Source: a virus (taxonomy: Duplodnaviria; Heunggongvirae; Uroviricota; Caudoviricetes). From it: a stretch of 31,107 bases of DNA. Each line of letters opens with the position of its first letter. Position 1 is the stretch's first letter. Below the pieces are notes generated by a model. That model ran no database searches and was not told the origin of the DNA. It saw nothing but the letters and a program-made list of their open reading frames with translations. The stretch is from IMG/VR virus record IMGVR_UViG_2602041644_000001. One strand, given 5' to 3'. The position numbers and the translations under genes were made by a program. Below, in pieces: positions 1 through 30,644 of the stretch.

Positions 1-111
1 GAAACACAACGTGTTATCTACCTCCGCGAAGGCTATGAGCATGAGTGCTTCAGCCCGCTCGAACAGTTTCGTCGTAAATTCAGGGAAATAGAGGTCGGTC
101 ATGAGCACTAA
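1..111 (+). CDS. 3' end of an upstream phage gene (partial), function unknown
   Basis: Frame 1 is open from the window edge to TAA at 109-111 and overlaps the next start at 101. Too short to assign. Confidence 0.3.
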   Translation, partial: ETQRVIYLREGYEHECFSPLEQFRRKFREIEVGHEH

Positions 112-1042
112 ATTAACCGGCTATGTATGGGATGGTTGCGCTGCATCAGGCATGAAATTATCCAGCGTGGCAATTATGGCCCGCCTGGCTGATTTCAGTA
201 ATGACGAAGGTGTGTGCTGGCCATCAATTGAAACTATTGCCCGTCAGATTGGCGCGGGGATGAGTACCGTCAGGACGGCTATCGCACGGCTGGAAGCAGA
301 AGGCTGGTTAACGCGTAAGGCGCGTCGCCAGGGTAACCGCAATGCGTCGAATGTTTATCAGCTTAACGTTGCGAAGCTTCAGGCAGCGGCATTTTCTCAA
401 CTGTCAGATTCTGACCCGTCAAAATCTGACGCATCAAAATCTGACCCGTCAAAATTTGATGCGTCGAAATCTGGCAAAAAAGCGGGTTTTCACCCGTCAG
501 AATCTGGCGGGGATCCGTCAGTAAAATCAAAACATGATCCGTCAGATAAAAAACCTTCTCGTCCGGACGCTTCGCAACCGGACACGCAGACGGATGAACA
601 GGATTTTTTAACTCGCCATCCTGATGCGGTTGTATTCAGCCCTAAAAAGCGCCAGTGGGGAACGCAGGATGATTTGACCTGCGCACAGTGGCTCTGGAAA
701 AAAATCATCGCCCTGTACGAGCAAGCCGCCGAATGTGACGGCGAGGTGGTTCGTCCCAAAGAACCGAACTGGACAGCCTGGGCAAACGAAATTCGCCTGA
801 TGTGTGTACAGGATGGTCGTACTCACAAACAAATCTGCGAGATGTACAGCCGCGTCAGCCGCGATCCGTTCTGGTGCCGTAACGTGCTCAGCCCGTCGAA
901 GTTGCGGGAAAAATGGGATGAGCTTTCCCTGCGCTTATCACCGTCCGTCAGCACGTACACCGAAAAACGCGAAGACCCGTACTTCAAATCCAGTTACGAC
1001 AACGTGGACTACAGCCAGATCCCGGCAGGATTCAGGGGGTGA
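101..1042 (+). CDS. Phage replication initiator / replisome organiser (O-like, N-terminal HTH)
   Basis: ATG at 101 follows GAGGT. N-terminus resembles phage replisome-organiser HTH domains. The central region is encoded by tandem DNA repeats, as in lambda O where ori lies inside the gene. Confidence 0.7.
   Translation: MSTKLTGYVWDGCAASGMKLSSVAIMARLADFSNDEGVCWPSIETIARQIGAGMSTVRTAIARLEAEGWLTRKARRQGNRNASNVYQLNVAKLQAAAFSQLSDSDPSKSDASKSDPSKFDASKSGKKAGFHPSESGGDPSVKSKHDPSDKKPSRPDASQPDTQTDEQDFLTRHPDAVVFSPKKRQWGTQDDLTCAQWLWKKIIALYEQAAECDGEVVRPKEPNWTAWANEIRLMCVQDGRTHKQICEMYSRVSRDPFWCRNVLSPSKLREKWDELSLRLSPSVSTYTEKREDPYFKSSYDNVDYSQIPAGFRG
403..548. repeat. Iteron-like direct repeats (putative phage replication origin) inside the initiator gene
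   Basis: About 6-7 copies of a CCGTCA(A/G)AATCTG(A/G)C-like unit at roughly 15-bp spacing between 416 and 548, translating as SDPSKSDASKSDPSKFDASKSG. Confidence 0.55.
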
Positions 1043-1044
1043 TC

Positions 1045-1533
1045 ATGAGTCTGTTAAATGACGTTCAGAAATTCATTGAAGCCCATCCGGGGTGTACTTC
1101 CGGAGACATTGCGGATGCTTTTGCAGGTTACTCACGGCAGCGCGTTCTGCAGTCTGCAAGCAAGTTACGTCAGAGTGGGCGTGTGGCTCACCGTTGTGAA
1201 GGAGATACACGCAGACATTTCCCGCGCCTGACTGAGAGAGCGCAGGAGCCGGAACCACAACCAGTTCGTGAAACCAGACCTGTGCGCAATTTCTATGTCG
1301 GCACTAACGATCCCCGGGTGATTTTGTGCCTGACCCGCCAGGCGGAAGAACTGGAGTCCAGGGGCTTATACCGTCGTGCTGCAACGGTGTGGATGGCGGC
1401 ATTCCGTGAAAGCCACTCCCAGCCAGAACGAAACAATTTTCTGGCGCGTCGTGAACGGTGTTTACGGAAAAGCAGTAAGCGGGCTGCATCAGGTGAAGAG
1501 TGGTATCTCTCAGGGAATTACGTGGGGGCTTAA
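1045..1533 (+). CDS. Putative regulator: N-terminal winged-helix-like region plus C-terminal PerC-like motif
   Basis: ATG at 1045 (GTG at 1039 also possible). C-terminal segment LESRGLYRRAATVWMAAF...NFLARRERCLRK resembles the PerC/Pch signature (LESKGLWRRAA..W) as I recall it. Confidence 0.5.
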   Translation: MSLLNDVQKFIEAHPGCTSGDIADAFAGYSRQRVLQSASKLRQSGRVAHRCEGDTRRHFPRLTERAQEPEPQPVRETRPVRNFYVGTNDPRVILCLTRQAEELESRGLYRRAATVWMAAFRESHSQPERNNFLARRERCLRKSSKRAASGEEWYLSGNYVGA

Positions 1534-2186
1534 TGAGTAATAAATATTGCCAGGCGCTGGTGGAACTGCGGAACAAACCAGCCCATGAACTGAAGGAAGT
1601 GGGCGATCAGTGGCGCACGCCGGACAACATTTTCTGGGGAATTAACACCCTGTTTGGCCCGTTTGTTCTGGATCTGTTCACTGACGGTGATAACGCCAAA
1701 TGTGCTGCGTATTACACGGCGGAAGACAACGCGCTGGCGCATGACTGGTCAGAACGCCTTGCGGAGCTTAAAGGTGCTGCCTTTGGTAATCCCCCATACA
1801 GCCGCGCCAGTCAGCATGAGGGGCAATACATCACCGGCATGCGTTACATCATGAAGCATGCCAGTGCCATGCGTGATAAAGGCGGGCGCTATGTTTTCCT
1901 GATCAAAGCTGCCACCAGCGAAGTGTGGTGGCCGGAAGATGCAGATCATATTGCTTTTATTCGCGGGCGTATTGGTTTTGAACTGCCTGCCTGGTTTATC
2001 CCGAAGGATGAGAAGCAGGTGCCGACAGGCGCTTTCTTCGCTGGTGCTATTGCTGTTTTCGACAAGACCTGGAAGGGACCGGCAATCAGCTACATCGGGC
2101 GCGATGAACTTGAGGCATGTGGTGAGGCCTTTCTGGCGCAGGTTCGCCAGCAGGCAGAAAAACTGGTCAGGGAGATGGCGGCATGA
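1533..2186 (+). CDS. Phage DNA N6-adenine methyltransferase (Dam-type)
   Basis: NPPY catalytic motif (FGNPPYS). Start ATG at 1533 overlaps the preceding stop (TAATG). Typical nin-region position. Confidence 0.8.
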   Translation: MSNKYCQALVELRNKPAHELKEVGDQWRTPDNIFWGINTLFGPFVLDLFTDGDNAKCAAYYTAEDNALAHDWSERLAELKGAAFGNPPYSRASQHEGQYITGMRYIMKHASAMRDKGGRYVFLIKAATSEVWWPEDADHIAFIRGRIGFELPAWFIPKDEKQVPTGAFFAGAIAVFDKTWKGPAISYIGRDELEACGEAFLAQVRQQAEKLVREMAA

Positions 2187-2509
2187 CGACGTTAACTCAA
2201 TGCCAGCAGCAGGTGCTGGATATGCTGATTTCTTATCAGAAAGAACGTGGCTTCCCGCCAACCAATCAGGAGGTGGCAACCATGCTGGGATACCGTTCAG
2301 TGAATGCAGCGGTGGAGCATCTTCGCGCACTGGAGAAAAAAGGCGTCATCACGATAAAGCGTGGCGTGGCCCGGGGCATCACGCTTCATACTGCGGTGAA
2401 GGACGACGACAGCGAGGCGGTCGGGATTATCCGCTCACTGCTTGCCGGTGAGGAAAACGCAAGGCTGCGTGCAGCCCACTGGTTACATGAGAGGGGCCTG
2501 AAAGTATGA
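2183..2509 (+). CDS. LexA-type DNA-binding domain protein (no peptidase domain)
   Basis: 108 aa resembling the LexA N-terminal winged-helix domain (QQQVLDMLISYQKERGFPPTNQEVA...VEHLRALEKKGVI). Start overlaps the upstream stop (ATGA). Confidence 0.7.
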   Translation: MTTLTQCQQQVLDMLISYQKERGFPPTNQEVATMLGYRSVNAAVEHLRALEKKGVITIKRGVARGITLHTAVKDDDSEAVGIIRSLLAGEENARLRAAHWLHERGLKV

Positions 2510-2895
2510 AGCTGATCCTGCCTTTTCCGCCCAGCGTGAACACGTACTGGCGACACCCCAACAAAGGGGCGTTTGCTGGTAAGAGCCTGATAAGCGCGGC
2601 TGGGCGAAAATTCCAGAGCGCGGCGTACGCAGCAATAGTTGAGCAGTTACGTCGTCTGCCGAAACCAACGTCGGCACCTGCTTCAGTGGAGATCGTGTTG
2701 TTTCCTCCGGATAACAGGATCCGCGATCTGGACAACTATAACAAGGCGCTGTTTGACGCCCTGACCCACGCGGGGGTGTGGGAAGACGACAGTCAGGTGA
2801 AAAGAATGCTGGTGGAGTGGGGACCGGTTATCCCGGAAGGGAAGGTCGAGATCACTATCAGTAAGTACGAGAAAACGGCGGGTGCAGCTGCCTGA
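2506..2895 (+). CDS. rusA: RusA Holliday-junction resolvase
   Basis: MKLILPFPPSVNTYW N-terminus and overall ~129 aa length are characteristic of RusA. Confidence 0.9.
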   Translation: MKLILPFPPSVNTYWRHPNKGAFAGKSLISAAGRKFQSAAYAAIVEQLRRLPKPTSAPASVEIVLFPPDNRIRDLDNYNKALFDALTHAGVWEDDSQVKRMLVEWGPVIPEGKVEITISKYEKTAGAAA

Positions 2896-2914
2896 TTAAG
2901 AGGAGAAACGAAGT

Positions 2915-3724
2915 ATGAATAATCTGATGGTCATTGATGGTATTGAAGTTCGTCGTGATGCTTATGGGCGTTACAGCCTGAACGATCTGCATCGCGCAGC
3001 AGTAGCATCTGGTGCAAATGCCAGAACCAAGGAGCCGGGAAAGTTTCTTTCCAGCCAACAAACTGTTGAGCTTGTTCATGAATTGACCAACACCCAGAAT
3101 TTGGGTGTTGACCCGGTGAGTGTGATTCATGGGGGAAATGAACGGGGAACGTATGTCTGCAAGGAACTGGTGTATGCCTATGCAATGTGGATCAGCCCGT
3201 CATTCCATCTGAAGGTGATCCGTACTTTCGATATGGTAACCAGCGCACCGGAAAAATTATCCGGACAGGCTGCTGACAAGATGCAGGCTGGCGTGATCCT
3301 GCTGGACTTTATGCGCCGGGAGTTAAACCTGTCTAACTCTTCAGTGCTTGGTGCCTGTCAGAAACTCCAGGAGGCTGTTGGCTTACCGAATCTGGCACCG
3401 CGCTATGCCATTGATGCTCCTGCTGATGCACACGATGGCTCAAGTCGCCCGACACTGTCACTGAGTGCACTGCTGAAACAGTATGGTATACGCCTGACGG
3501 CTAATCAGGCATATCACCAGATGGTGAAACTGGGGATCGTCGAGCAGCGCGAACGATACAGCCGTACCGCGATTAACAACATCAAAAAATTCTGGTCGCT
3601 GACAGCGAAAGGTTGCATGTTCGGCAAGAACATCACCAGTCCCGCAAATCCGCGCGAGACGCAGCCGCATTTCTTAGAATCCCGATTCCCTGAGCTGTTA
3701 AAGCTGCTCGATACCGTTCATTGA
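2915..3724 (+). CDS. KilA-N domain protein
   Basis: N-terminal KilA-N-like segment (GRYSLNDLH...KELVYAYAMWISPSFHLKVIRTFD). Good RBS AAGAGGAG upstream. Confidence 0.8.
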   Translation: MNNLMVIDGIEVRRDAYGRYSLNDLHRAAVASGANARTKEPGKFLSSQQTVELVHELTNTQNLGVDPVSVIHGGNERGTYVCKELVYAYAMWISPSFHLKVIRTFDMVTSAPEKLSGQAADKMQAGVILLDFMRRELNLSNSSVLGACQKLQEAVGLPNLAPRYAIDAPADAHDGSSRPTLSLSALLKQYGIRLTANQAYHQMVKLGIVEQRERYSRTAINNIKKFWSLTAKGCMFGKNITSPANPRETQPHFLESRFPELLKLLDTVH

Positions 3725-3725
3725 G

Positions 3726-4721
3726 GTGACCGTGAGAGCACTACTGACCCCTGAAATTGCCCCGCGTATGGGGATCGTATTGTTCAGGCCAGGTTCAGAG
3801 CTGATGCCCCTGTTTATGCAGGGGCGTGTCCTGCTGGAGCCTGAGCCGGAGCGTTATTCATCTTTCGCCAGTGGTGCCGTTCCGGCGGCATCACAACCGC
3901 TGGCGGATGATCCTGCCGTTCGGGCCGTGTTCCGCAATGAGGCAGTGATCCGTCGTGCTGGTGGCGTGGAATGTCTTGAAAGCTGGTTACTTCGTGAAAA
4001 AGGCTGCCAGTGGCCTCATTCCGACTGGCACAGCGAGAACATGACCACAATGCGACACGCGCCGGGCGCAATCCGTCTGTGCTGGCACTGCGATAACCAG
4101 CTGCGCGATCAGTTCACGGAACGGCTGGAATCAATGGCAACGGATAACTGTGTCCGGTGGGTGTTATCTGTCGTGCGTCGGGATCTCGGTTTTGATGACA
4201 GTCACGTTGTGACAATGCCGGAACTGTGCTGGTGGCTGATTCGTAATGATCTGGCGGATGCCTTACCGGAAAGTGCAGCCCGTAAGGCACTGAGATTACC
4301 GAAGCCTGTTGTGCCGTCTGTTACCCGGGAAAGTGACCTTGTGCCTTCGGTTCCTGCCACCAGCATCATCCAGGATAAGGCGAAAAAGGTGCTGGCGCTG
4401 AAAGTGGATCCGGAGTCGCCGGAGTCTTTTATGTTACGCCCAAAACGTCGCCGCTGGGTTAATGAAAAGTACACGCGCTGGGTTAAGACACAGCCGTGTG
4501 CATGTTGTGGAAAGCCTGCTGATGATCCCCACCACCTGATAGGCCACGGTCAGGGGGGAATGGGTACAAAAGCGCATGACCTCTTTGTGTTGCCTTTGTG
4601 CAGAAAGCATCACGACGAGTTGCATGCGGATACCGTGGCATTTGAAGAGATGTATGGCTCCCAGCTGGAGCTGATATTTCGTTTTATCGATCGTGCGCTG
4701 GCAATAGGCGTACTGGCGTAA
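3726..4721 (+). CDS. DUF968-like protein (YdfU-like) with C-terminal Cys/His metal-binding motif
   Basis: C-terminus CACCGKPADDPHHLIGHG...HDLFVLPLCRKHHDELH. Sits next to the Q-like gene as ydfU does in Qin. Start uncertain (GTG at 3726; ATG at 3768 possible). Confidence 0.6.
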   Translation: MTVRALLTPEIAPRMGIVLFRPGSELMPLFMQGRVLLEPEPERYSSFASGAVPAASQPLADDPAVRAVFRNEAVIRRAGGVECLESWLLREKGCQWPHSDWHSENMTTMRHAPGAIRLCWHCDNQLRDQFTERLESMATDNCVRWVLSVVRRDLGFDDSHVVTMPELCWWLIRNDLADALPESAARKALRLPKPVVPSVTRESDLVPSVPATSIIQDKAKKVLALKVDPESPESFMLRPKRRRWVNEKYTRWVKTQPCACCGKPADDPHHLIGHGQGGMGTKAHDLFVLPLCRKHHDELHADTVAFEEMYGSQLELIFRFIDRALAIGVLA

Positions 4722-4734
4722 GTGGAGAACGAGC

Positions 4735-5487
4735 ATGAACCTTGAAGCCTTACCGAAATATTACTCCCCAAAATCTCCAAAATTGAGCGATGACGCACCG
4801 GCGACAGGCTCTGGTGGTTTAACAATTACGGATGTAATGGCTGCGCAGGGGATGGTGCAGTCGAAAGCACCGCTTGGGTTTGCCTTATTCCTGGCAAAAG
4901 TTGGTGTTCAGGATCCTCAGTTTGCGATTGAAGGTCTGCTCAATTACGCGATGGCACTGGATAACCCGACATTGAACAAATTGAGTGAAGAAACCCGGCT
5001 ACAGATCATTCCTTACCTTGTGAATTTTGCCTTTGCTGATTATTCCAGGTCTGCGGCAAGTAAGGCTCGCTGTGAGCATTGTGCTGGTACTGGATTTCAT
5101 GATGTATTGCGCGAGGTGGTGAAACACTCCAGAAGCGGGGAATCTGTTATCAAGGAAGAGTGGGTGAAGGAACTGTGTCAGCATTGTCATGGTAAGGGAG
5201 AAGTCAGCACAGCGTGCAGAGGGTGTAAGGGTAAAGGTATTGTCCTGGATGAAAAAAGAACCCGGCTTCATGGCACGCCTGTTTATAAGGTTTGTGGGCG
5301 TTGCAATGGAAACCGGTTTAGCCGTTTACCAACCACACTGGCGCGGCTTCATGTCCAGAAGCTGGTACCAGACCTGACGGATTATCAGTGGTACAAAGGA
5401 TATGCAGATGTCATTGATAAACTGGTTACAAAGTGCTGGCAGGAAGAAGCGTATGCTGAGACACAATTGAGGAAAGTGACGAGATGA
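4735..5487 (+). CDS. Putative late-gene antiterminator Q (QuuQ-like, four CxxCxGxG zinc-finger repeats)
   Basis: 250 aa with CEHCAGTG, CQHCHGKG, CRGCKGKG, CGRCNGNRF repeats. Immediately upstream of a strong promoter and intrinsic terminator, and of the lysis cassette. Confidence 0.6.
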   Translation: MNLEALPKYYSPKSPKLSDDAPATGSGGLTITDVMAAQGMVQSKAPLGFALFLAKVGVQDPQFAIEGLLNYAMALDNPTLNKLSEETRLQIIPYLVNFAFADYSRSAASKARCEHCAGTGFHDVLREVVKHSRSGESVIKEEWVKELCQHCHGKGEVSTACRGCKGKGIVLDEKRTRLHGTPVYKVCGRCNGNRFSRLPTTLARLHVQKLVPDLTDYQWYKGYADVIDKLVTKCWQEEAYAETQLRKVTR

Positions 5488-5518
5488 ATGATTTTCGACG
5501 AAAATGGCGACATGATGC

Positions 5519-5547
5519 TTGCATTTTTCAAAAAAAATGGATAATAT
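5519..5547 (+). promoter_or_regulatory. Putative late promoter (pR'-like)
   Basis: TTGCAT (5519-5524), 17-nt spacer, TAATAT (5542-5547), directly downstream of the Q-like gene. Confidence 0.5.
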
Positions 5548-5593
5548 TATCTCAATGATAGGCATTGTGTGTCCGGCTTTAATAAAAAGTAGA

Positions 5594-5620
5594 AAACCCG
5601 CTGATGTGCGGGTTTTTTTT
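5594..5620 (+). terminator. Intrinsic terminator (tR'-like)
   Basis: Hairpin CCCGC-TGATGT-GCGGG followed by T8. Confidence 0.7.
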
Positions 5621-5698
5621 CGGAATTTTAGATGTGTGGCATTGAAATGGTATTCGGCGAGTAGGTAGAATTTAAACTTTCGTCTCGTCTGGATCGAC

Positions 5699-6241
5699 AT
5701 GATGTTTCAAGCCTTCCAAACAGCAGTATTTAAAAATGTTGCAGAGTATTTAAAAGGGCGCTTCCCTCATAAGTCGTTAGGGCTCGTATATGCCGACGAG
5801 CTGGTACTAAAAGATATGGAGTTCCTCAAGGCTAACAATAAACTGCGGTGGGATCCCGGACTAAAGTCGCGAGTGTTTATGGATATGATGGAAGAACACC
5901 CGATAAAACTAGTTGTTTATTATCGTGGGGAGCCTATTGGATTTGCATTTGGGTGTTACTGTAAGCCGAAAAATGCGGTGCATATTTGCTGGATGGAAAA
6001 ACGTAATGATGCACATGAAGACCTAGACCATCAGATGCTTGGTATCGTTTTGGATTGCTTCTCTGCATATGCACGATTTCTGAACCTTCAGGGTGAATCT
6101 ATTGATTCGATAGCTTTAGTTAGTCCAGTTGATGGGGCAATAAGATACTATACTGAAAGTGGTTTTGAGTACATTGCTGATTACGAACGAGGTGGTTGCG
6201 CAATGGTGCTTAGGAGCGTTTTACCTAACCAATCAGTGTGA
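5699..6241 (+). CDS. Cargo protein, possible GNAT-like acetyltransferase fold
   Basis: 180-aa ORF in a visibly AT-rich island. Segment MLGIVLDCFSAYARFL...AIRYYTESGFEY loosely fits GNAT motifs A/B. No confident family assignment. Confidence 0.5.
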   Translation: MMFQAFQTAVFKNVAEYLKGRFPHKSLGLVYADELVLKDMEFLKANNKLRWDPGLKSRVFMDMMEEHPIKLVVYYRGEPIGFAFGCYCKPKNAVHICWMEKRNDAHEDLDHQMLGIVLDCFSAYARFLNLQGESIDSIALVSPVDGAIRYYTESGFEYIADYERGGCAMVLRSVLPNQSV

Positions 6242-6432
6242 GTTAGATTCTTAATTTCTCCAGAATCATTACAAAAGTATTGAAAACCTCTTTTAGTTGA
6301 TGCAATCTGGATCCACACAAAGCACACACAAAATGTACTACGCTTTACTTTATACATCTTCAGGTAACAAACTTTGTTGCCTTTATGCTTCAAAGAAGCA
6401 ACTACAGCTTAGTGCTGAACAAGGGGATTTTT

Positions 6433-6618
6433 ATGAAACATCATGAGCAGATAGAGATTGAGGCAGCTAAAGTCGTCGCCGAACTCTTTGCTGGCAATGC
6501 ATCTCCAATGGAAACCTTTGGTATTACATGGAGTCAAACTCAGATGTTAGAGCGTAAGAATCCTGGTGTAGTGATCAAACTAGTACCGGATGACGGTAAA
6601 AAACTTGCGTATTGCTGA
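6433..6618 (+). CDS. Small hypothetical protein (61 aa)
   Basis: ATG at 6433 with AAGGGGA RBS. AT-rich context, followed by an intrinsic terminator. Confidence 0.45.
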   Translation: MKHHEQIEIEAAKVVAELFAGNASPMETFGITWSQTQMLERKNPGVVIKLVPDDGKKLAYC

Positions 6619-6676
6619 TAATTTTTAAAGATTTTTTCAGCTAGAGAATCGATTATTTTACTATAAATCGCGAAGG

Positions 6677-6705
6677 AGCCCCACATATTGTGGGGCTTTT
6701 TGTTT
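6677..6705 (+). terminator. Intrinsic terminator
   Basis: Hairpin AGCCCCA-CATATT-GTGGGGCT followed by a T-run. Confidence 0.6.
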
Positions 6706-6875
6706 CATCTTAGTTAGCCGTTATTCACATTCACTACTTTGCTACTTATCCACTGTAAAAATAAATTGTGAATTATTTTGTGGCTTATTGTTAGTGTTCT
6801 ATCAATTTTGTGTGTGATATTCCATTGGCGTGGTTATTATCTGTGCATCGCACTTAAATGTATAAAGCTCACTAG

Positions 6876-7190
6876 TTGAGACAATCCTACCACCAGTTGG
6901 TGGTATCTCATGATTCACTGAATTGCAAATCTTCTGAATTGCTGGATGAGTTTAAATCTCACCGGCGCTATTTCTCCGTATCAGTCTCCGTGCCTTATAC
7001 CGATGTCAGGACGCATAAGCCCGTTCAGTTCTACCCGGGTAAACATCCGTGCGAGAAACCGGCGGATATGCTCAGGCAAATAATCAATGCCAGTAGTCGA
7101 CCTGGTGATCTGGTTGCTGATTTCTTTATGGGATTCGGTTCCACAATAAAAGCAGCAATGGCGCTGGGGCGTCGGGCGTTAGGTGTTTAA
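6876..7190 (+). pseudogene. C-terminal remnant of an N6/N4 DNA methyltransferase
   Basis: Only the C-terminal AdoMet-binding part is present (HPCEKPADMLRQII, DFFMGFGST ~ HPTxKP / FxGxG). The N-terminal ~35 codons are unrelated and there is no DPPY motif. Coding status of the remnant unknown. Confidence 0.6.
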
Positions 7191-7326
7191 CTTGAGTCAG
7201 AGCGGTTTAATCAGACGGTGAAAGAGGTAAGTGAACTGGTGGGGAAATAATTCTGGTGGCCACGTTGCGTGGCCTTTTTATTTCCAACACAGCACCCGCA
7301 AATATCGCGAGGTGAGAGATGACGAA

Positions 7327-7653
7327 ATGCCTCATAACCCAAATACCTGGCTGGACTTGGTCCAGAGCTGGTGGCGTGGAGACACACCGCTGGGTGCAGT
7401 GATTATGTCGATCGTTATGGCTGGTTTGCGCATCGCCTATTTTGGCGGTGGTGGTGGCTGGAAGCGAAAAACGCTCGAAATTCTACTCTGTGGCGCTCTG
7501 ACGCTGACTTTTGCATCCGCTCTTGAGTATGTCGGATGGCCTAAATCACTTTCTGTTGCCATTGGTGGTGGGGTGGGGCTGATCGGTGTCGATGCTATTC
7601 GTGGGGCTGCAATGCGAGTAATCGGTAACAAATTTGGTGGCTCTAAGGAGTAA
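7327..7653 (+). CDS. Class I holin (lambda S-like, three TMDs)
   Basis: Three predicted hydrophobic helices and a charged C-terminus, immediately upstream of the R lysozyme. ATG at 7327 chosen (RBS GAGGTGAGAG) over the longer 7231 ORF. Confidence 0.8.
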   Translation: MPHNPNTWLDLVQSWWRGDTPLGAVIMSIVMAGLRIAYFGGGGGWKRKTLEILLCGALTLTFASALEYVGWPKSLSVAIGGGVGLIGVDAIRGAAMRVIGNKFGGSKE

Positions 7654-7656
7654 TTT

Positions 7657-8509: not shown

Positions 8510-8642
8510 TACACCTGTACCGTTTATACCCAACCCACTGACGTATGGTGCAAGTCTTGATTTGAATGTAAGTTTGTTATCCGCGTTGGCTCAATGTAAT
8601 AGGGATAAGTCAGATATCAGAATCATTGATAATCAAAATTGA
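8394..8642 (+). CDS. Rz1-like outer-membrane lipoprotein spanin (o-spanin), overlapped type
   Basis: +1 frame relative to Rz. Lipobox LLTGC after a hydrophobic signal, proline-rich mature region. Extends 133 nt past the Rz stop. Confidence 0.7.
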   Translation: MMIVLYALCLLPLLTGCGSTRTVYVSIPKTPLPVSLTSDTPVPFIPNPLTYGASLDLNVSLLSALAQCNRDKSDIRIIDNQN

Positions 8643-8846
8643 TGTATATTTTTATCGTCATGTAGATAACGAACAAGGTATTCCTCTGATACGTATTCGT
8701 TGAATACAGGTCATGGGTAGGCATTGCAATATCGCTTCGAAATTATCTGTGATAATGCTCTTAATTTTGAATGTATGTATTTGGGAAAAGAGATAAAGTA
8801 ATAGTCTAATTAATGGAGATATCCACAAAACACAAAAGGGACTATT

Positions 8847-9353: not shown

Positions 9354-9361
9354 TTCATCAA

Positions 9362-23061: not shown

Positions 23062-24137
23062 ACGATAACGTCACGCTACGGGTAAATGGCCGGGAGTGGA
23101 ATGGCTGGACATCGGTGCGCATCGGTGCCGGTATTGAACGGCTGGCGCGGGATTTCAGTGTGGAGATCACCCGCCAGTGGCCGGGAGATGAGGGTATCAC
23201 CACGCTTCAGCCGCGCATTAAAAATGGTTCAAAAGTGGAAGTGCTGATTGGTGATGAGCTGGTGATCACCGGCTGGGTGGAGGCGACCCCCGTTCGTTAC
23301 GATGCCCGTTCGGTCAGCACCGGTATTGCCGGACGTAGTCTGACTGCTGACCTGATTGACTGTGCAGCCGAACCGACACAGTTTAACGGACGATCGCTGG
23401 TACAGATTGCGCAGGCGCTTGCTGCGCCTTTCGGCATTGAGGTGGTGAACAACGGTGCGCCGTCGGGTGTTATTCCTGATGTCCAGCCTGATCACGGTGA
23501 AACGGTGATTGAGGTAATCAACAAAATACTCGGTCAGCAGCAGGCACTGGCTTACGACGACCCGCACGGCAGGCTGGTGATTGGCGGTATTGGCTCAACG
23601 CGGGCACATACTGCGCTGGTACTCGGGGAAAACATCCTTTCCTGCGATACGGAGAAGAGTATCCGGGAGCGGTTTTCTGTTTACCAGGTGGCGGGGCAGC
23701 GTGCCGGAAACGACGATGATTTCGGTGAGGCCACCACCACCGCGCTGCGGGCCCGCACAGAGGACGCATTTATTGCCCGTTACCGTCCGATGTATATCAG
23801 GCAGACAGGGCAGGCTACGGGGGCAGGCTGTATTGCCCGTGCGGACTTTGAAGCCAAACAACGGGCGGCGCGGACGGATGAAACCACCTATGTGGTGCAG
23901 GGCTGGCGACAGGGTAACGGTACGCTGTGGCAGCCCAACCAGCGGGTGATTGTCTTTGATCCGGTCTGTGGTTTCGACAATACCGAACTGCTTGTTTCGG
24001 AAGTCACGTTTACTCAGGACCAGAACGGCACCCTGACGGAAATCCGTGTCGGCCCACCTGATGCTTATCTGCCTGAACCCGAAGCCCCCGGCGCGCGGAA
24101 AAAGAAAAAAGCCAGAGTACAGGAGGACCCGTTCTGA
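23058..24137 (+). CDS. Mu gpP-like tail / baseplate hub protein
   Basis: 359 aa in the Mu-like order N-P-45-46-47-48. Confidence 0.8.
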   Translation: MNDNVTLRVNGREWNGWTSVRIGAGIERLARDFSVEITRQWPGDEGITTLQPRIKNGSKVEVLIGDELVITGWVEATPVRYDARSVSTGIAGRSLTADLIDCAAEPTQFNGRSLVQIAQALAAPFGIEVVNNGAPSGVIPDVQPDHGETVIEVINKILGQQQALAYDDPHGRLVIGGIGSTRAHTALVLGENILSCDTEKSIRERFSVYQVAGQRAGNDDDFGEATTTALRARTEDAFIARYRPMYIRQTGQATGAGCIARADFEAKQRAARTDETTYVVQGWRQGNGTLWQPNQRVIVFDPVCGFDNTELLVSEVTFTQDQNGTLTEIRVGPPDAYLPEPEAPGARKKKKARVQEDPF

Positions 24138-24685
24138 TGAGGACGATTGAAGCCATGCAGCGACAACTCCTCGGCCTGATTGGGCGGGCCGTGGTGAAAA
24201 GCATCAGTGCCGCCACGAAATGTCAGACCGTGGATGTGTCTCTGATTGCCGGTGAACCCAAAGCCGGGGTTGAACATCTTGAACCCTACGGTTTTACCGC
24301 AAGGGCAAACAGCGGTGCGGAAGCGGTGGTGTTGTTTCCGGATGGCGACCGTTCTCATGCGGTGGTTGTTACGGTGTCGGACCGGCGCTACCGCCTGAAA
24401 GGGCTGCAGACGGGTGAGGTGGCTGTCTATGACGATCAGGGGCAGTCCGTGACGCTGACCCGGGAGGGGATCGTGGTGGACGGTGCAGGTAAAACGATCA
24501 CGTTTCGCAATTCACCTAAAGCACGTTTTGAAATGGACCTGGAAGTGACCGGACAGGTGAAAGACCTGTGCGACTCCAGCGGCACCACCATGTCAGCGAT
24601 GCGGCTTGCCTATAACGGGCATCGTCACAGAGAGAACGGTCAGGGCAGTAACACCGACAAACCTGATAAAGCAATGGAGGCATGA
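24137..24685 (+). CDS. Baseplate spike / assembly protein V (Mu gp45-like)
   Basis: 182 aa gpV-like protein with coupled start. Confidence 0.8.
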   Translation: MRTIEAMQRQLLGLIGRAVVKSISAATKCQTVDVSLIAGEPKAGVEHLEPYGFTARANSGAEAVVLFPDGDRSHAVVVTVSDRRYRLKGLQTGEVAVYDDQGQSVTLTREGIVVDGAGKTITFRNSPKARFEMDLEVTGQVKDLCDSSGTTMSAMRLAYNGHRHRENGQGSNTDKPDKAMEA

Positions 24686-25110
24686 TGGAACTGTGGCTGA
24701 TGGTGAACGGTAAACGCACCTGCGCCAGCACACCGCTGGATCCGCTGACCCGCGCCGTGGTGATTTCCCTGTTTACCTGGCGGCGGGCGGAGCCTGATGA
24801 CAACGCCGACGTCCCGATGGGATGGTGGGGGGATACCTGGCCTGCGGTACAGAATGACCGTTACGGCTCCCGGCTGTGGCTGCTTCAGCGCAGCAAACTG
24901 ACCAATCAGCTGGTGCAGACGGTAAGGGGGTATATCCGCGAATGCCTGCAATGGATGATTGATGACGGTGTGGTGTCCCGTATTGATCTGGATATCCGCC
25001 GCACCGGGATTAATGAACTGGGTAACAGTATCACTCTCTGGCGTCGTGACGGACCGGTAATGATTTCTTTTGATGATCTGTGGAGTGCGATAACGCATGG
25101 CGGACAGTGA
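24682..25110 (+). CDS. GP46-family baseplate protein (Mu gp46-like)
   Basis: 142 aa in conserved position. Confidence 0.75.
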   Translation: MMELWLMVNGKRTCASTPLDPLTRAVVISLFTWRRAEPDDNADVPMGWWGDTWPAVQNDRYGSRLWLLQRSKLTNQLVQTVRGYIRECLQWMIDDGVVSRIDLDIRRTGINELGNSITLWRRDGPVMISFDDLWSAITHGGQ

Positions 25111-26155
25111 ATTTCAGCGCCCGACGCTGGCAGAAAATATCAGTATGCTCCGTAACGATTTATTCGCCAGGCTGGACGTCAGCGACACGCTCCGGCGCAT
25201 GGATGAAGACGTGCGGGCAAAGGTGTATGCGGCGGCGCTGCATACGGTTTACGGGTACATCGATTATCTGGCAATGAACATGCTGCCTGACCTGTGCGAT
25301 GAGTCCTGGCTGGCGCGACATGCTGCGATGAAACGGTGTCCGCGCAAGGGGGCCACGGCTGCCAGCGGGTATATGCGCTGGGAAGGTGTCAGCGATGGCC
25401 TGAAAGTGACCGCCGGGAGCGTGATTCAGCGCGATGACCTGGTTCAGTACACGGCAACTGCCGATGCAACCAGCTCCGGTGGTGTCCTGCGCGTGCCGAT
25501 CGCCTGCTCAAGTGCAGGCGCGGTCGGTAACGCTGACGACGGTACGGCATTAATCCTGGTCACGCCGGTGAATGGTCTGCCGTCTTCCGGTGTGGCTGAC
25601 ACTCTGACAGGCGGATTTGATACTGAAGATCTGGAAACGTGGCGCGCCCGCGTCATTGAGCGGTATTACTGGACGCCGCAGGGCGGGGCTGACGGGGACT
25701 ATGTCGTCTGGGCTAAAGAAGTGCCCGGCATTACCCGCGCATGGACATACCGTCACTGGATGGGAACGGGAACTGTCGGTGTGATGATTGCCGGCAGTGA
25801 CCTGATTAATCCCATTCCGGAAGAATCAACGGAAACGGCGGCAAGACAACACATCGAGCCACTGGCCCCGGTGGCAGGCTCTGATTTGTATGTGTTCAGG
25901 CCGGTGGCGCATACGGTGGATTTTCATATCCGCGTGACGCCGGACACACCGGAAATACGGGCTGCCATCACCGCGGAGTTGCGTTCGTTCCTGCTGCGTG
26001 ATGGTTATCCGCAGGGAGAACTGAAGGTGTCACGTATCAGTGAAGCGATTTCCGGTGCGAACGGGGAATACAGCCATCAGTTGCTTGCTCCGGCGGACAA
26101 TATCTCCATTGCGAAAAATGAACTGGCGGTTCTGGGGACGATTTCATGGACGTGA
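25097..26155 (+). CDS. Baseplate J-like protein (Mu gp47-like)
   Basis: 352 aa in conserved position. Confidence 0.85.
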
Positions 26156-26730
26156 CAAACGATGATTACATCCGCCTGTTATCGGCACTGTTGCCGCCCG
26201 GTCCGGCGTGGTCAGCCAGCGATCCGGCGATTGCCGGTGCGGCGCCTTCATTAACCCGTGTTCATCAGCGTGCGGATGCCCTGATGCGGGAGCTGGATCC
26301 GCGCACCACCACCGAACTGATAAATCGCTGGGAGCGTCTGTGCGGTCTGCCGGATGAATGTATTCCCACAGGGACACAGACCCTTCGCCAGCGTCAGCAA
26401 CGGCTGGATGCGAAGGTTAACCTGGCGGGCGGCATCAACGAGGATTTTTACCTTGCCCAGCTTGCTGCCCTGGGCAGACCAGACGCCAGCATCACGCGAT
26501 ACGACAAAAGCACGTTCACCTGCTCATCGGCCTGTACTGACGCGGTGAATGCGCCGGAATGGCGGTATTACTGGCAGGTCAACATGGCAGCTGCCACCAA
26601 CACCACCTGGATGACATGTGGCGATCCCTGTGATTCCGCACTGCGTATCTGGGGCGACACCGTTGTCGAGTGTGTGCTTAACAAACTCTGCCCGTCGCAT
26701 ACCTACGTAATTTTTAAATATCCGGAGTAA
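26146..26730 (+). CDS. Tail protein, Mu gp48-like / YmfQ-like (DUF2313)
   Basis: 194 aa resembling e14 YmfQ-type proteins, directly upstream of the tail fibre gene. Confidence 0.8.
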
Positions 26731-26733
26731 TCC

Positions 26734-27489
26734 ATGCATCGTATAGACACGAAAACCGCGCAGAAGGATAAGTTCGGCGCGGGTAAGAACGGTTTTACCC
26801 GTGGTAACCCCCAGACCGGCACACCTGCCACCGATCTGGATGATGACTACTTTGACATGTTGCAGGAGGAGCTTTGCGGCGTGGTGGAGGCATCCGGTGC
26901 CAGCCTGGAGAAGGGGCGGCACGACCAGCTGCTTACCGCGCTTAGTGCGCTACTGTTAAGCCGCAAAAATCCGTTTGGCGATATCAAATCGGACGGCACG
27001 GTGAAAACGGCTCTCGAAAACCTTGGTTTGGGAGAAGGCTCTGCATTACCTGTTGGTGTGCCTGTTCCGTGGCCCTCAGCCACTCCGCCAACAGGCTGGC
27101 TAAAATGCAACGGAGCAGCTTTTTCTGCTGAAGAATACCCGGAACTGGCAAAGGCTTACCCGACAAATAAATTGCCTGATTTACGCGGTGAATTTATTCG
27201 TGGCTGGGATGACGGACGTGGAGTGGATGCCGGGCGACAATTATTATCTTCACAGGGGGATGCAATAAGAAATATTGAGGGATTCGCAGATGGCGGGATC
27301 GGCATGTCTTTTGATGCAATCAGAGGGGCTTTTTACGATGCAGGAACACGATCAGCGAGAATGCCGAATAACACAACTGATATAGGCAAAACCGATGACC
27401 TTGGATTCGACGCCTCTCGTGTCGTGCCAACAGCTAATGAAAACCGTCCACGTAACATCGCCTTTAATTATATTGTGAGGGCTGCATAA
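26734..27489 (+). CDS. Tail fibre protein: constant N-terminal part fused to the currently expressed variable C-terminal cassette
   Basis: The constant part ends at the recombination site near codon ~97 (…LENLGLGE). The downstream part lies inside the invertible segment. Confidence 0.8.
27011..27037. repeat. Left inversion crossover site (gix/pix-like)
   Basis: CTCTCGAAAACCTTGGTTTGGGAGAAG. The 15-nt TTGGTTTGGGAGAAG is the exact reverse complement of 28841-28855 and the site resembles hix/gix half-sites. Confidence 0.65.
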
Positions 27490-28082
27490 TGAAACCTGTT
27501 TTTGATGAAAATGGGCTGGCTACAGTGCCGGGTGATATGCGTTGTTATTATTATGATGCAGTAACGTCTGAATATACGGGCTGGTCTGATGAATATATTA
27601 ATACTGGCGTAAGTATGCCCGCCTGTTCCACTGGTATTGACCCGGGCGAATACATTCCGGGGCAAGTGGCAGTATTCACGGGTAAGGGATGGAGCCATGA
27701 AGAAGACCATCGCAATGAGACTGTTTACTCAACAGAAAATGGCGCAGCTGTTACAGTGGATTATATCGGTGCCATCAAAGACGGTTATGTCACGCTTTCA
27801 CCGTTAACGCCATACGATAAATGGGATGGTGAGAAATGGGTGACAGATACTGAGGCACAGCATAGTGCCGCACTAGACGCGGCAGAAGCACAGCGCCAGT
27901 CGCTGATTGATGCTGCAATGGCTTCCATCAGTCTGATTCAACTGAAATTACAGGCCGGGCGGAAGCTGACGCAGGCAGAAACAACCCGACTTAACGCCGT
28001 GCTGGATTATATTGACGCGGTGACGGTAACAGATACCAGCACTGCGCCGGATGTCATCTGGCCTGAACTGCCGGAGGCGTAG
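27489..28082 (+). CDS. Tail fibre assembly protein (Tfa) for the expressed cassette
   Basis: 197 aa with a typical Tfa C-terminus (…DTSTAPDVIWPELPEA). Start coupled to the fibre gene stop. Confidence 0.8.
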   Translation: MKPVFDENGLATVPGDMRCYYYDAVTSEYTGWSDEYINTGVSMPACSTGIDPGEYIPGQVAVFTGKGWSHEEDHRNETVYSTENGAAVTVDYIGAIKDGYVTLSPLTPYDKWDGEKWVTDTEAQHSAALDAAEAQRQSLIDAAMASISLIQLKLQAGRKLTQAETTRLNAVLDYIDAVTVTDTSTAPDVIWPELPEA

Positions 28083-28494
28083 GCCATTCAATATCTGGCG
28101 CACCGGAAGTATCGACCAGTTCCAGTGTGTCCAGATAATCCAGCCACAAATTATATTGCGCCAGTTCCTCACCTTTCAGGCGACCAATCGCCGCTTTACC
28201 AGGCCATTGCTTACTGTTTATGTATTCGTTGACCTGATTAATCAATTGCTGCTTTTCCAGTTCGGCTGCGGCAATTTGTTCCTCATGAGTTGGCGGTGGA
28301 ATATCAATCCATGCAGGCATTCCGTCGATGACACCTCTGTATTTTCCTTCTGGTGCTTCCTTCATAAATTCGGCGGCAACAGTGTCGTCAATTTCGATTC
28401 CATCATCGGGCCATTCGCCGGATTCCTGATAAGCGATTTTAAGCTCCACAGGGAAAAACGCATTTTTATCGGCACTGAAAATATATTTCTGCAT
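28054..28494 (-). CDS. Alternative tail fibre assembly protein (Tfa') for the silent cassette
   Basis: 146 aa on the minus strand with the matching C-terminus (…DTSGAPDIEWPTPPAVQAR). Convergent with and overlapping the plus-strand tfa by 29 bp. Confidence 0.8.
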   Translation of the reverse strand: MQKYIFSADKNAFFPVELKIAYQESGEWPDDGIEIDDTVAAEFMKEAPEGKYRGVIDGMPAWIDIPPPTHEEQIAAAELEKQQLINQVNEYINSKQWPGKAAIGRLKGEELAQYNLWLDYLDTLELVDTSGAPDIEWPTPPAVQAR

Positions 28495-28496
28495 TT

Positions 28497-28855
28497 CTAC
28501 CGTCCTATCGAAATATAACTGAATCTGTATTGCTGTGAGATATCACTGGTTGCCACACGCCACGCTGAATTACTGATATGTTCAAAATTTACAGACAAAA
28601 CCTGCAGGGCAGGATTCGACGGGTCTGACTGAACGGCATCAGACATAACACTGACTGAAACCATCGGCTGATTAGGGAATGGTATAGGGAAGTGTCCACT
28701 GATAAAGCGGGTCGTGTTTCCTGAAAAAGTGCCAAACTGAACAATATATCCACCTGGTAGCCTGAACCATCCCGAACCAGAAGCGAATGCTCCCATATCC
28801 GGTATCTGATTATCTCCTGTGCCCACATCCCTTTTCGCCGCTTCTCCCAAACCAA
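28497..28855 (-). CDS. Silent alternative tail-fibre C-terminal cassette (promoterless until inversion)
   Basis: Minus-strand frame reads GLGEAAKRD… from the crossover site, the same GLGE junction as the plus-strand fibre. Confidence 0.7.
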
Positions 28856-28867
28856 CATTTATGAAAA
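28841..28867. repeat. Right inversion crossover site (gix/pix-like)
   Basis: CTTCTCCCAAACCAACATTTATGAAAA. The first 15 nt are the inverted repeat of 27023-27037. Located just upstream of pin. Confidence 0.65.
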
Positions 28868-28921
28868 TGCAGAAATAACGAGCAAATGGCATCATTCCTG
28901 CTTTTGCTAGGGAGATCTACC

Positions 28922-29476
28922 ATGCTTATTGGCTATGTACGTGTGTCAACAAATGACCAGAACACAGATCTACAACGTAATGCGCTGAACTGTGCAGGAT
29001 GCGAGCTGATTTTTGAAGACAAGATAAGCGGTACAAAGTCCGAAAGGCCGGGACTGAAAAAACTGCTCAGGACATTATCGGCAGGTGACACTCTGGTTGT
29101 CTGGAAGCTGGATCGGCTGGGGCGCAGTATGCGGCATCTGGTCATTCTGGTTGAGGAGTTGCGCGAACGTGGCGTTAATTTTCGCAGCCTGACGGATGCT
29201 ATTGATACCAGCACACCGATGGGGCGTTTTTTCTTTCATGTGATGGGTGCCCTGGCTGAAATGGAACGAGAACTGATTGTTGAACGAACAAAAGCTGGAC
29301 TGGAAGCTGCTCGCGCACAGGGACGAATTGGGGGACGTCGTCCCAAACTTACACTAGAACAATGGGCGCAGGCCGGGCGATTAATTGCATCAGGCATTCC
29401 TCGCCAGAAGGTGGCGATTATCTATGATGTTGGTGTGTCAACTTTGTATAAGAGGTTTCCTGCAGGGGATAAATAA
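28922..29476 (+). CDS. pin: Serine DNA invertase (Pin/Gin/Hin family)
   Basis: MLIGYVRVSTNDQ catalytic N-terminus and C-terminal HTH. 184 aa like e14 PinE. ATG 28922 after GGGAGA. Confidence 0.95.
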   Translation: MLIGYVRVSTNDQNTDLQRNALNCAGCELIFEDKISGTKSERPGLKKLLRTLSAGDTLVVWKLDRLGRSMRHLVILVEELRERGVNFRSLTDAIDTSTPMGRFFFHVMGALAEMERELIVERTKAGLEAARAQGRIGGRRPKLTLEQWAQAGRLIASGIPRQKVAIIYDVGVSTLYKRFPAGDK

Positions 29477-29577
29477 AGTTAAAGACACTTTGTGTACAAA
29501 ATAAAACAACAGCAACTTGTTGCAATTTTATCAATAAAAGTAGTATTGTCGTAAAAAATTGATTAAAGATTAATGCT

Positions 29578-30411
29578 ATGCATGTTTTTGATAATAATGG
29601 AATTGAACTAAAAGCTGAGTGTTCGATAGGTGAAGAGGATGGCGTTTATGGTCTAATCCTTGAGTCGTGGGGGCCGGGTGACAGAAACAAAGATTACAAT
29701 ATCGCTCTTGATTATATCATTGAACGGTTGGTTGATTCTGGTGTATCCCAAATCGTAGTATATCTGGCGTCATCATCAGTCAGAAAACATATGCATTCTT
29801 TGGATGAAAGAAAAATCCATCCTGGTGAATATTTTACTTTGATTGGTAATAGCCCCCGCGATATACGCTTGAAGATGTGTGGTTATCAGGCTTATTTTAG
29901 TCGTACGGGGAGAAAGGAAATTCCTTCCGGCAATAGAACGAAACGAATATTGATAAATGTTCCAGGTATTTATAGTGACAGTTTTTGGGCGTCTATAATA
30001 CGTGGAGATCTATCAGAGCTTTCACAGCCTACAGATGATGAATCGCTTCTGAATATGAGGGTTAGTAAATTAATTAAGAAAACGTTGAGTCAACCCGAGG
30101 GCTCCAGAAAACCAGTTGAGGTAGAAAGACTACAAAAAGTTTATCTCCGAGACCCGATGGTAAAAGCTTGGATTTTACAGCAAAGTAAAGGTATATGTGA
30201 AAACTGTGGTAAAAATGCTCCGTTTTATTTAAATGATGGAAGCCCATACTTGGAAGTGCATCATGTAATTCCCCTGTCTTCAGGTGGTGCTGATACAACA
30301 GATAACTGTGTTGCCCTTTGTCCGAATTGCCATAGAGAATTGCACTATAGTAAAAATGCAAAAGAACTAATCGAGATGCTTTACGTTAATATAAACCGAT
30401 TACAGAAATAA
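29578..30411 (+). CDS. mcrA: McrA-type modified-cytosine restriction endonuclease (HNH)
   Basis: 277 aa. C-terminal HNH motif (HHVIPLSSGGADTTDNCVALCPNCHRELH) with CxxC pairs. Sequence and position after pin match e14 McrA as recalled. AT-rich gene. Confidence 0.85.
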   Translation: MHVFDNNGIELKAECSIGEEDGVYGLILESWGPGDRNKDYNIALDYIIERLVDSGVSQIVVYLASSSVRKHMHSLDERKIHPGEYFTLIGNSPRDIRLKMCGYQAYFSRTGRKEIPSGNRTKRILINVPGIYSDSFWASIIRGDLSELSQPTDDESLLNMRVSKLIKKTLSQPEGSRKPVEVERLQKVYLRDPMVKAWILQQSKGICENCGKNAPFYLNDGSPYLEVHHVIPLSSGGADTTDNCVALCPNCHRELHYSKNAKELIEMLYVNINRLQK

Positions 30412-30644
30412 AATTGTTTATTAAAGTCACATTTAAGACGTAATACCTTACAGGGTAAAAATTTTCTCTGATCTTAACTTCTGCAAATGTTAACTGCTTT
30501 TTTTATGCTAAAAATGGTTATCAAAACTCAAAAACACATGTTGATAATCAATGAGTTATGGAAATGCTAAGAGCTAATGAGTTATATGCAAATTAGTAAA
30601 ATTATGTTGCTATGTCAAATAGTTACGATTTAATCATCTAACTA

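Follow-up and report, generated by a model that had tools for sequence, protein, structure and literature searches.

The window analysed here is a stretch of 31,107 bases (IMG/VR record IMGVR_UViG_2602041644_000001), of which positions 1-30644 form the right-hand 30.6 kb (78%) of a ~39.2-kb prophage lying in the 3′ end of icd in Escherichia coli. Judged by its gene and site content, the element is probably a complete and functional SfII-type temperate myovirus that carries the integration module and right end of e14, the cryptic prophage of E. coli K-12. Over positions 1-25000 the window has 100% identity with the complete chromosomes of five E. coli strains of human origin (WR3-3, WR14-2, MSB1_6C, S1-JOR-02-A, and 22AR0747), and the whole window differs from WR3-3 by two single-nucleotide polymorphisms (SNPs; positions 12 and 3676). 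Coordinates to the left of the window refer to the WR3-3 locus (L001; WR3-3 3079328-3129327, reverse-complemented), the window coordinate being the L001 coordinate minus 12,500. The RefSeq annotation of the WR3-3 locus, Pfam scans and the list of open reading frames (ORFs) agree on the gene order, and the order described in a first-pass annotation of these letters is present as given; that annotation had proposed an apparently intact relative of e14 and SfV at icd, an observation that is confirmed and an interpretation that is supported at the level of sequence.

Attachment Sites and Prophage Boundaries

The prophage occupies icd, an attachment site that it shares with phage 21. The site is well known for prophages, and its attachment geometry has been described (PMC6379469, PMC10111431). 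At attL, icd is completed by a replacement end borne by the phage, and its native end has been moved to attR:

30645-30861, + strand: attR, the native 3′ end of icd in its displaced position, made up of 165 bp of coding sequence (30645-30809) and a further 52 bp that include the icd terminator

Between the attR block and the icd 3′ end present at attL (L001 3985-4201), identity is 92.3%. When the two were aligned together with icd and icdC of K-12 in a four-way alignment, homology was found to begin at ATGCTGCGCCA in both elements, with an equal layout. The prophage thus delimited extends from L001 ~3985 to the attR block, the displaced icd fragment starting exactly at window position 30645. 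Position 1 of the window is a window edge rather than a prophage boundary; it falls inside the early-right operon, and in the matching genomes the element runs ~8.5 kb further left to attL inside icd.

Short repeats of the GTTATCAAAA type lie near both ends, with three just inside attL (L001 4218-4251), one to the left of the attR core (window 30517-30526) and a further one upstream of xis (L001 7443-7452). In 50 kb there are 13 matches at no more than one mismatch, compared with 4.4 expected, and these repeats are candidate arm-type sites for the integrase.

Integration and Lysogeny Genes

From attL to the window, the left 8.5 kb of the prophage in WR3-3 encodes a 216-amino acid (aa) protein, a DUF262 protein, intE, xisE, yfdR, yfdQ, yfdP, a repressor gene, cro, ymfL, and ymfM. 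The first-pass annotation had named this upstream region as the place to look for an integrase, a repressor and the 5′ portion of icd; in WR3-3 icd is intact (416 codons), and IntE, XisE, a helix-turn-helix (HTH) repressor with an S24 domain, and Cro are all present. IntE, a protein of 376 aa, shares 94-95% identity with its K-12 namesake, the catalytic R, HxxR, H, and Y residues being conserved, and XisE is 94% identical to its K-12 counterpart. The repressor combines HTH_3 and Peptidase_S24 domains and has the AG, GDSM, and VKK motifs of self-cleaving S24 repressors. Among isolated phages, mEp460_4F5 gives the best match to the immunity region (95.5% DNA identity); a description of this region as SfIV-like is wrong, the SfIV match skipping L001 10648-11680.

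One ORF of the left arm (L001 9429-9739) is called a frameshifted hypothetical protein by PGAP, as it is at the same place in strains S88 and D3, and in the SfIV annotation the frame forms an N-terminal extension of gp34. Decay was rejected as its explanation, the region being collinear without gaps with isolated phage SfIV, and the call is probably an annotation artefact. At the attL end, the DUF262 protein (gene pair at L001 4275-5986) matches the PADLOC profiles NsnA (E = 8.5e-32) and PD-T4-2_A (E = 9.5e-14). It and the 216-aa protein take the place of ymfD, ymfE, and lit of K-12 e14, identical proteins of this pair occur in the O91 strain RM7190, and the two together are a candidate anti-phage system.

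Packaging, Head, and Tail Genes

The packaging and virion genes occupy most of the window and are arranged as follows:

9411-9761, + strand: HNH endonuclease adjoining the packaging genes (Pfam HNH; 92-93% identical to the SfII/SfV HNH proteins)
9827-9836, + strand: cos overhang TGCCCGCCCC, identical to the 10-nucleotide (nt) cohesive end of SfI
9887-10381, + strand: terS, P27-type
10378-12111, + strand: terL
12123-12305, + strand: YmfR
12305-13546, + strand: portal
13524-14174, + strand: S78 prohead protease
14189-15394, + strand: HK97-type capsid (PF05065)
15443-15643, + strand: 66-aa ORF in the head module
15646-15969, + strand: head-tail connector
15966-16376, + strand: head closure
16351-16857, + strand: neck/tail completion
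16854-17414, + strand: tail terminator
17423-17590, + strand: DUF2635
17577-19070, + strand: sheath
19070-19426, + strand: tube
19426-19695, + strand: tail chaperone (−1 slippery site T_TTT_TTC at 19677-19683; extension frame to 19844)
19837-21672, + strand: tape measure
21733-23061, + strand: Mu N-like protein
23058-24137, + strand: Mu P-like protein
24137-24685, + strand: gp45
24685-25110, + strand: gp46
25097-26155, + strand: gp47/J
26146-26730, + strand: gp48/YmfQ

None of the 24 structural proteins encoded from terS to YmfQ is truncated, and each shares 93-100% identity with its full-length counterpart in isolated phage SfII. The head and packaging proteins (9887-16857) have Pfam and PHROG matches, and the tail and baseplate proteins (16854-26730), which belong to Mu-type Pfam families, are 94-100% identical to SfII/SfV proteins. 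At the DNA level, window 9762-27037 aligns with SfII 1-17280 at 97.6% identity with two gap openings only, which bears out the earlier remark that the structural genes show no frameshifts; against SfII and SfV, both the structural and the early modules align collinearly from end to end. The SfI cohesive end to which the cos overhang corresponds was determined experimentally (PMC3636060), and the linear records of SfII and SfV begin at window positions 9762 and 9820, respectively. The slippery site in the chaperone gene would drive a −1 frameshift.

Comparison with e14 of E. coli K-12

e14 of K-12 excises after SOS induction, and in 2004 it was reportedly described by Mehta et al. as a deleted lambdoid prophage related to SfV. 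Comparison of the window by BLAST with K-12 e14 (NC_000913.3 1196209-1211412; positions below are those of the K-12 locus, L003) gave four collinear blocks:

Window 1-334, L003 11071-11404: 98.2% identity
Window 10975-12712, L003 11402-13139: 98.0% identity
Window 25368-27038, L003 13136-14806: 96.6% identity
Window 28841-30860, L003 16605-18629: 96.0% identity

The last block, equivalent to pinE-mcrA-icdC of K-12, belongs to the right end that the first-pass annotation had likened to e14. In K-12 coordinates, adjacent blocks overlap by 3 and 4 nt at two deletion junctions, and exactly two internal blocks present in the window are missing from K-12, namely ~335-10974 (about 10.6 kb) and ~12713-25367 (about 12.7 kb), which carry replication, nin, Q, lysis, terS, head, and tail genes. 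At the first junction, codons 1-79 of the O-like initiator (oweE; 99% identical) are joined to residues 200-577 of terL (aaaE); at the second, portal residues 1-139 (beeE) are joined to residues 74-352 of gp47/J (jayE). The two junctions explain the chimeric K-12 genes ymfN (oweE/aaaE) and beeE/jayE, the first of which is annotated in K-12 as 'chimeric replication protein/phage terminase YmfN'. Of the packaging, head, and neck genes, K-12 keeps only terL residues 200-577, YmfR and portal residues 1-139. On these alignments, K-12 e14 is the same type of element after two internal deletions; the K-12 gene names already encode this interpretation, so that the relationship is known and the window adds the undeleted state.

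The two elements have the icd site and its geometry in common, including the point at which homology starts and the 165-bp displaced icd end. YmfL is 94% identical between them and ymfM/DUF4222 98%; the C-terminus of terL, YmfR, and the N-terminus of the portal are 98-100% identical, and the C-terminus of gp47, YmfQ, and the N-terminus of Stf 92-97%. The order ymfQ, stf/tfa invertible segment, pinE, and mcrA is also shared (YmfQ, PinE, and McrA, 96-99%). However, the repressor and cro genes of K-12 e14 are ymfK and ymfT (YmfK/CohE and YmfT/CroE), to which the element's repressor is related only through its S24 part (42% identical to YmfK), and the element's Cro has no match in K-12 e14. The early-left genes ymfH/I/J are represented in the element by yfdR/Q/P, and the attL cargo ymfD, ymfE, and lit by the DUF262 and 216-aa proteins. 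The differing immunity region and cargo make the element a heteroimmune mosaic relative of e14 and not its literal progenitor.

Invertible Fibre Segment, pin, and mcrA

Between the baseplate genes and attR lie a tail fibre switch and two further genes:

26734-28082, + strand: expressed tail fibre (251 aa) and Tfa assembly protein (27489-28082)
27018-27037, no strand: left crossover site, with an identical 15-nt core at 27023-27037
28054-28892, − strand: silent alternative set, with Tfa2 (28054-28494) and a fibre C-terminus (28497-28892; Pfam Gp53-like_C)
28841-28860, no strand: right crossover site, with an identical 15-nt core at 28841-28855
28922-29476, + strand: pin, serine DNA invertase (184 aa; Pfam Resolvase and HTH_7; 96% identical to K-12 PinE)
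29578-30411, + strand: mcrA, type IV methyl-directed HNH restriction enzyme (277 aa; 99% identical to K-12 McrA)

The expressed fibre consists of a constant N-terminal region of ~100 aa followed by a variable C-terminus with a Collar domain (Pfam Collar; Caudo_TAP is the second family matched in this set). Over its N-terminal 105-108 aa, it shares 91-95% identity with K-12 StfP and with the fibres of SfII and SfV. The crossover sites form an inverted repeat pair of 20 nt with 90% complementarity, and simulated inversion places the constant N-terminus in frame with the silent C-terminus, which yields a fibre of 215 aa with Tfa2 (146 aa) after it. This second arrangement exists: strain MSB1_6C from Australia and strain 22AR0747 from New Zealand both carry the sequence of window 27023-28855 in reverse orientation at 100% identity. 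The inversion ends within the 15-nt cores, the flanks are 100% identical over 9.1 kb, and the annotated fibre has 215 aa. The presence of both orientations in otherwise identical prophages means that inversion mediated by Pin has occurred within this near-clonal set, and a past Pin inversion in the lineage is shown.

The arrangement is that of the Din-family switches (Mu G/Gin, P1 C/Cin, and e14 P/Pin), in which a serine invertase likewise stands beside a segment bounded by short inverted repeats and in which two alternative fibre C-termini with their chaperones are, as here, joined in frame in either orientation to a constant N-terminus outside the segment. With respect to K-12 e14, the variable fibre parts are only partly related, and the partly homologous invertible segment of MG1655 lies in the opposite orientation. 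McrA has a PADLOC mREase_IV match with E = 1e-200.

Early Region, Antitermination, and Lysis

To the left of the packaging genes, the window contains the following:

1-111, + strand: 3′ ends of ymfM (112 aa, ends ~91) and DUF4222 (59 aa, ends 111), overlapping and out of frame
101-1042, + strand: O-like replication initiator (313 aa, HTH_36; 100% identical over its full length to SfII gp41)
1039-5487, + strand: nin-type early genes and Q (Pfam matches and PGAP names), comprising the seven entries that follow
1039-1533, + strand: YfdN/PerC-like
1533-2186, + strand: Dam-type N6-A methyltransferase
2183-2509, + strand: LexA_DNA_bind-only protein
2506-2895, + strand: RusA
2915-3724, + strand: KilA-N
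3732-4721, + strand: DUF968/HNHc
4735-5487, + strand: Q antiterminator
5519-5620, + strand: late promoter-like site (TTGCAT 5519-5524, TAATAT 5542-5547) and tR′-type hairpin with T-run (5593-5620)
5621-6875, + strand: low-GC moron block (GC fraction 0.385-0.44; no DNA match to SfII, SfV, or mEp460)
5699-6241, + strand: 180-aa GNAT-fold-like protein, with a promoter-like site of its own at 5642-5671
6362-6382 and 6673-6701, + strand: terminator-like hairpins in the moron block
6433-6618, + strand: 61-aa ORF in the moron block
6876-7190, + strand: DNA methyltransferase remnant (C-terminal 104 codons; PGAP 'missing N-terminus')
7327-8642, + strand: lysis cassette with holin (7327-7653), GH24 endolysin (7657-8133), Rz (8117-8509), and embedded Rz1 (8394-8642)
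8847-9353, + strand: 168-aa protein of a function-unknown family (phrog_5789), in a moron position between the Rz1 and HNH genes

The 'full complement' of replication genes claimed earlier amounts to the single O-like initiator, and that protein is the one of SfII without change. The proteins from YfdN to Q (YfdN, Dam, the LexA_DNA_bind protein, RusA, KilA-N, DUF968, and Q) are all full length and 86-100% identical to those of SfII, SfV, or mEp460. Region 5519-5620 has a conserved counterpart at SfV 33599-33700, in which the hairpin bears a terminator annotation, and the stem has compensatory changes; the region would act as pR′/tR′. The lysis proteins are full length and 61-97% identical to those of SfII/SfV, and carry matching PGAP names.

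At the window's left edge, the ymfM frame is open and its DNA 98-99% identical to K-12 and SfII, and the overlapping frame matches Pfam DUF4222 (L001 12253-12611 for both ORFs). In K-12 ymfM is annotated as a cell division inhibitor, and PGAP calls DUF4222 instead at that place. A damaged ymfM was considered and rejected, because the 112-aa frame is open although PGAP annotates DUF4222 there. The protein at 2183-2509 (108 aa) consists of a LexA DNA-binding domain alone without an S24 peptidase and is 97-99% conserved in SfII, SfV, and mEp460; one possibility is that it competes at LexA boxes.

The moron block occupies the place of the 5′ two thirds of an SfV-type methylase gene, of which the adjoining stub is the remainder: it shares 88% identity with the C-terminal part of SfV orf48 (350 aa) and aligns with Pfam PF01555 (N6_N4_Mtase) at profile positions 156-209 of 221 only. 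As had been noted from the ORFs, this methylase fragment is the sole clear gene remnant in the window. The moron ORFs match phrog_11949 and phrog_11292, both families of unknown function. No Pfam or PADLOC match was found for the 180-aa protein; its AlphaFold model (mean pLDDT 86) retrieves GNAT acetyltransferases in Foldseek (best E = 1.8e-6, TM about 0.5), so that the protein may be described as GNAT-fold-like. Proteins related to it at 40-87% identity are found in Cronobacter, Proteus, and Pragia, among other records. The 168-aa protein likewise has no Pfam or PADLOC match and is absent from SfII and SfV.

Relatives and Distribution

The closest characterized relatives are SfI, SfII, SfIV, and SfV, isolated serotype-converting Shigella phages with cos ends and myovirus morphology. 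Its similarity to SfII runs from cos to the fibre N-terminus, and with the SfII/SfV group it has in common the nin genes, Q (SfV), holin, endolysin, and HNH protein, in addition to the cos 10-mer of SfI. In contrast, SfI, SfII, SfV, and SfIV integrate at tRNA-thrW by means of an unrelated integrase, whereas the element sits at icd with an e14-type Int. The O-antigen genes (gtr or oac) of the Shigella phages are missing from the element, which has its invertible fibre segment, pin, and mcrA in their place, and the fibre C-termini of the Sf phages differ from its own. SfV also has a different portal, protease, and capsid (26-27% identity) and keeps a full methylase. The lambdoid icd prophages 50icd and Eco160.55.icd use the icd attB and a phage-borne 3′ end in a like manner but are lambda-like siphoviruses (PMC10111431).

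The prophage is already known, in that GenBank ON470584 (vB_EcoM-689R6) holds essentially the same sequence and full-length SfV-like 'e14' prophages are on public record. ON470584 has 3 SNPs over window 1-27222 and 100% identity over window 28895-30704 and the left arm; it is a scaffold delimited by PHASTER that includes the host genes icd, rluE, and mnmA, has a gap of N at the cos region and is without window 27223-28894. It was rejected as proof of a real phage, being a PHASTER 'intact' call on a draft assembly with host genes included, and not derived from particles. Full-length 'e14' structural modules have been used in earlier comparisons (PMC3636060); the 'e14' of E. coli S88 from the same study was rejected as a full-length icd case, having another integrase, another site and a truncated pin.

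At least 80% of window 1-25000 is held, at any site, by 570 of 5426 complete E. coli genomes, and the O/terL deletion junction of K-12 is present in 283 genomes. The phage body is not confined to icd, and two relatives are informative about the modules. In strain D3 (NZ_CP010140.1 801064-850864), a phage body 98.2% identical to that of the element lies at tRNA-thrW with an SfV-type integrase. Its repressor, Cro, Q, and moron proteins do not differ from those of the element (the repressor, Cro, and the morons share WP accessions); its fibre region is disrupted and its pin truncated. Integration modules have evidently been swapped between otherwise near-identical phages. The O91 strain RM7190 holds a full-length icd prophage with identical IntE, XisE, and DUF262 proteins and with a different immunity region and lysis cassette, modular differences that are as expected of an exchanging phage population.

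Life Cycle, Functional State, and Origin

The gene content suggests the following life cycle. The e14-type tyrosine integrase would insert the phage into the 3′ end of icd, supplying the replacement end, and the HTH and S24 repressor encoded just left of the window would keep the prophage silent. Upon DNA damage, RecA-stimulated self-cleavage of the repressor would derepress cro, ymfL, and the O-like initiator gene, and Int and Xis would then excise the element. Q is predicted to let transcription pass tR′ and reach the lysis, packaging, and structural genes, and terminase with the adjacent HNH protein to cut at the cos site. Pin would flip the 1.8-kb segment between the 15-nt cores, exchanging the fibre C-terminus together with its chaperone and thereby offering two alternative host ranges. 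The mcrA gene, the DUF262 gene pair on the attL side, and the GNAT-fold moron may be regarded as cargo of the lysogen.

The best explanation of the locus, held to be quite likely, is a complete temperate phage of the SfV/SfII group in icd that represents the undeleted counterpart of e14; phages of this group combine early genes of lambdoid type and cos packaging with an HK97-type head and a contractile tail of Mu type. The completeness of genes and sites, the correspondence with the K-12 deletions, the attachment geometry, and the past inversion are shown by the alignments described above; induction and infectivity are inferred to be reasonably to quite likely. That the element is a viable, SOS-inducible phage, which would make it the first infectious phage to use the integrase and attachment system of e14, with a dual host range switched by Pin, is reasonably probable.

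As to origin, the element may be a recent hybrid, in which an incoming SfII-type phage of the thrW kind took int/xis/att, fibre, pin, and mcrA from a resident e14 remnant at icd. This bears on origin only and is compatible with either functional state. The D3 prophage, whose 98.2% core with the same repressor, Cro, and morons lies at thrW beside an SfV-type integrase, fits such an event, as does the limitation of K-12 e14 homology to int/xis, ymfL through the N-terminus of O, terL through the portal, and gp47 through icdC. However, the K-12 remnant holds terL, portal, gp47, and ymfQ pieces of this very structural module, which means that the e14 lineage had an SfII-type body before its deletions, and RM7190 combines the same int/xis and the same body with a different immunity region. 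A recent hybrid origin is possible but doubtful.

Several observations weigh against a functional phage, and some of them would also favour a complete-looking but grounded prophage, that is, one rendered cryptic like e14 by a missense or regulatory change such as a non-cleavable repressor or a defective Xis or structural protein. Missense or regulatory defects would be invisible to the methods used, and the account of the left 8.5 kb, which lies outside the window, is drawn from near-identical genomes. An excised attP, sought as a two-arm pattern validated on attL, was found in none of the IMG/VR, JGI metagenome contig, and GTDB genome collections by an exact-match search of limited sensitivity, and the attR arm occurs in three IMG/VR contigs, all in prophage form; neither a virion nor an attP form thus appears in the public collections searched. 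Among 50,697 phage records there is no isolated phage with this integrase: the e14-type left arm (int and xis) is found in ON470584 only, and the nearest other integrases in a protein search are 83% identical (a Klebsiella record) and then about 60%. The sole 'phage' record is a software prediction, and the study behind it induced eight strains, of which Eco_689, the source of the record, was not one. The combination of an undeleted baseplate with pin, mcrA, and the icd fragment is present in only 35 of 5426 complete E. coli genomes, as counted at a coverage of at least 80% with a chimeric query that skips the invertible segment; a plain right-end query proved uninformative for counting icd prophages, the invertible segment and IS200 breaking up its matches. 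In keeping with a grounded state, another icd prophage has been seen to excise yet gave no plaques (PMC10111431).

Against a grounded prophage stand the 24 of 24 full-length structural proteins with 93-100% identity to isolated phages, the conserved cis sites, the retained self-cleavage motifs of the repressor, the recent action of Pin in the lineage and the mosaic full-length relatives in unrelated strains, and this alternative is considered unlikely. A domesticated tailocin or a defence island kept for its mcrA and DUF262 cargo, to which the defence genes at both ends might point, is highly improbable, since tailocin loci are without head and packaging genes and the element has intact modules for head, portal, protease, terminase, cos, lysis, replication, and lysogeny.

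Read as a complete temperate phage, the element remains an ordinary prophage that leaves current understanding unchanged. It is of use as a clean reference, giving a base-resolution view of the two blocks lost from K-12 e14 and of their junctions, and it illustrates module portability, essentially the same phage body occurring with a thrW-type or an icd-type integration module. If a carrier strain is inducible, it would provide an experimental phage for icd integration, fibre switching by Pin, and the study of McrA and other cargo; if viable, it would represent, as a living phage, the type from which K-12 e14 descended.

Sequence Beyond attR

No tRNA genes were found in the window, and the single match of an Rfam scan of the window is the IS200 RNA in the following feature:

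30862-31107, + strand: start of IS200C, outside the prophage (Rfam STnc490 at 30872-30995, 146 bits; tnpA annotated from window 31005)

This IS200C copy begins directly after the attR homology, and WR3-3 has a second copy beyond iraM and ymgK (L001 43505-45541). In 22AR0747, two IS200C copies are adjacent with no iraM or ymgK between them (22AR0747 locus 9006-10175), which suggests that the loss of these two genes was an IS200-associated deletion.

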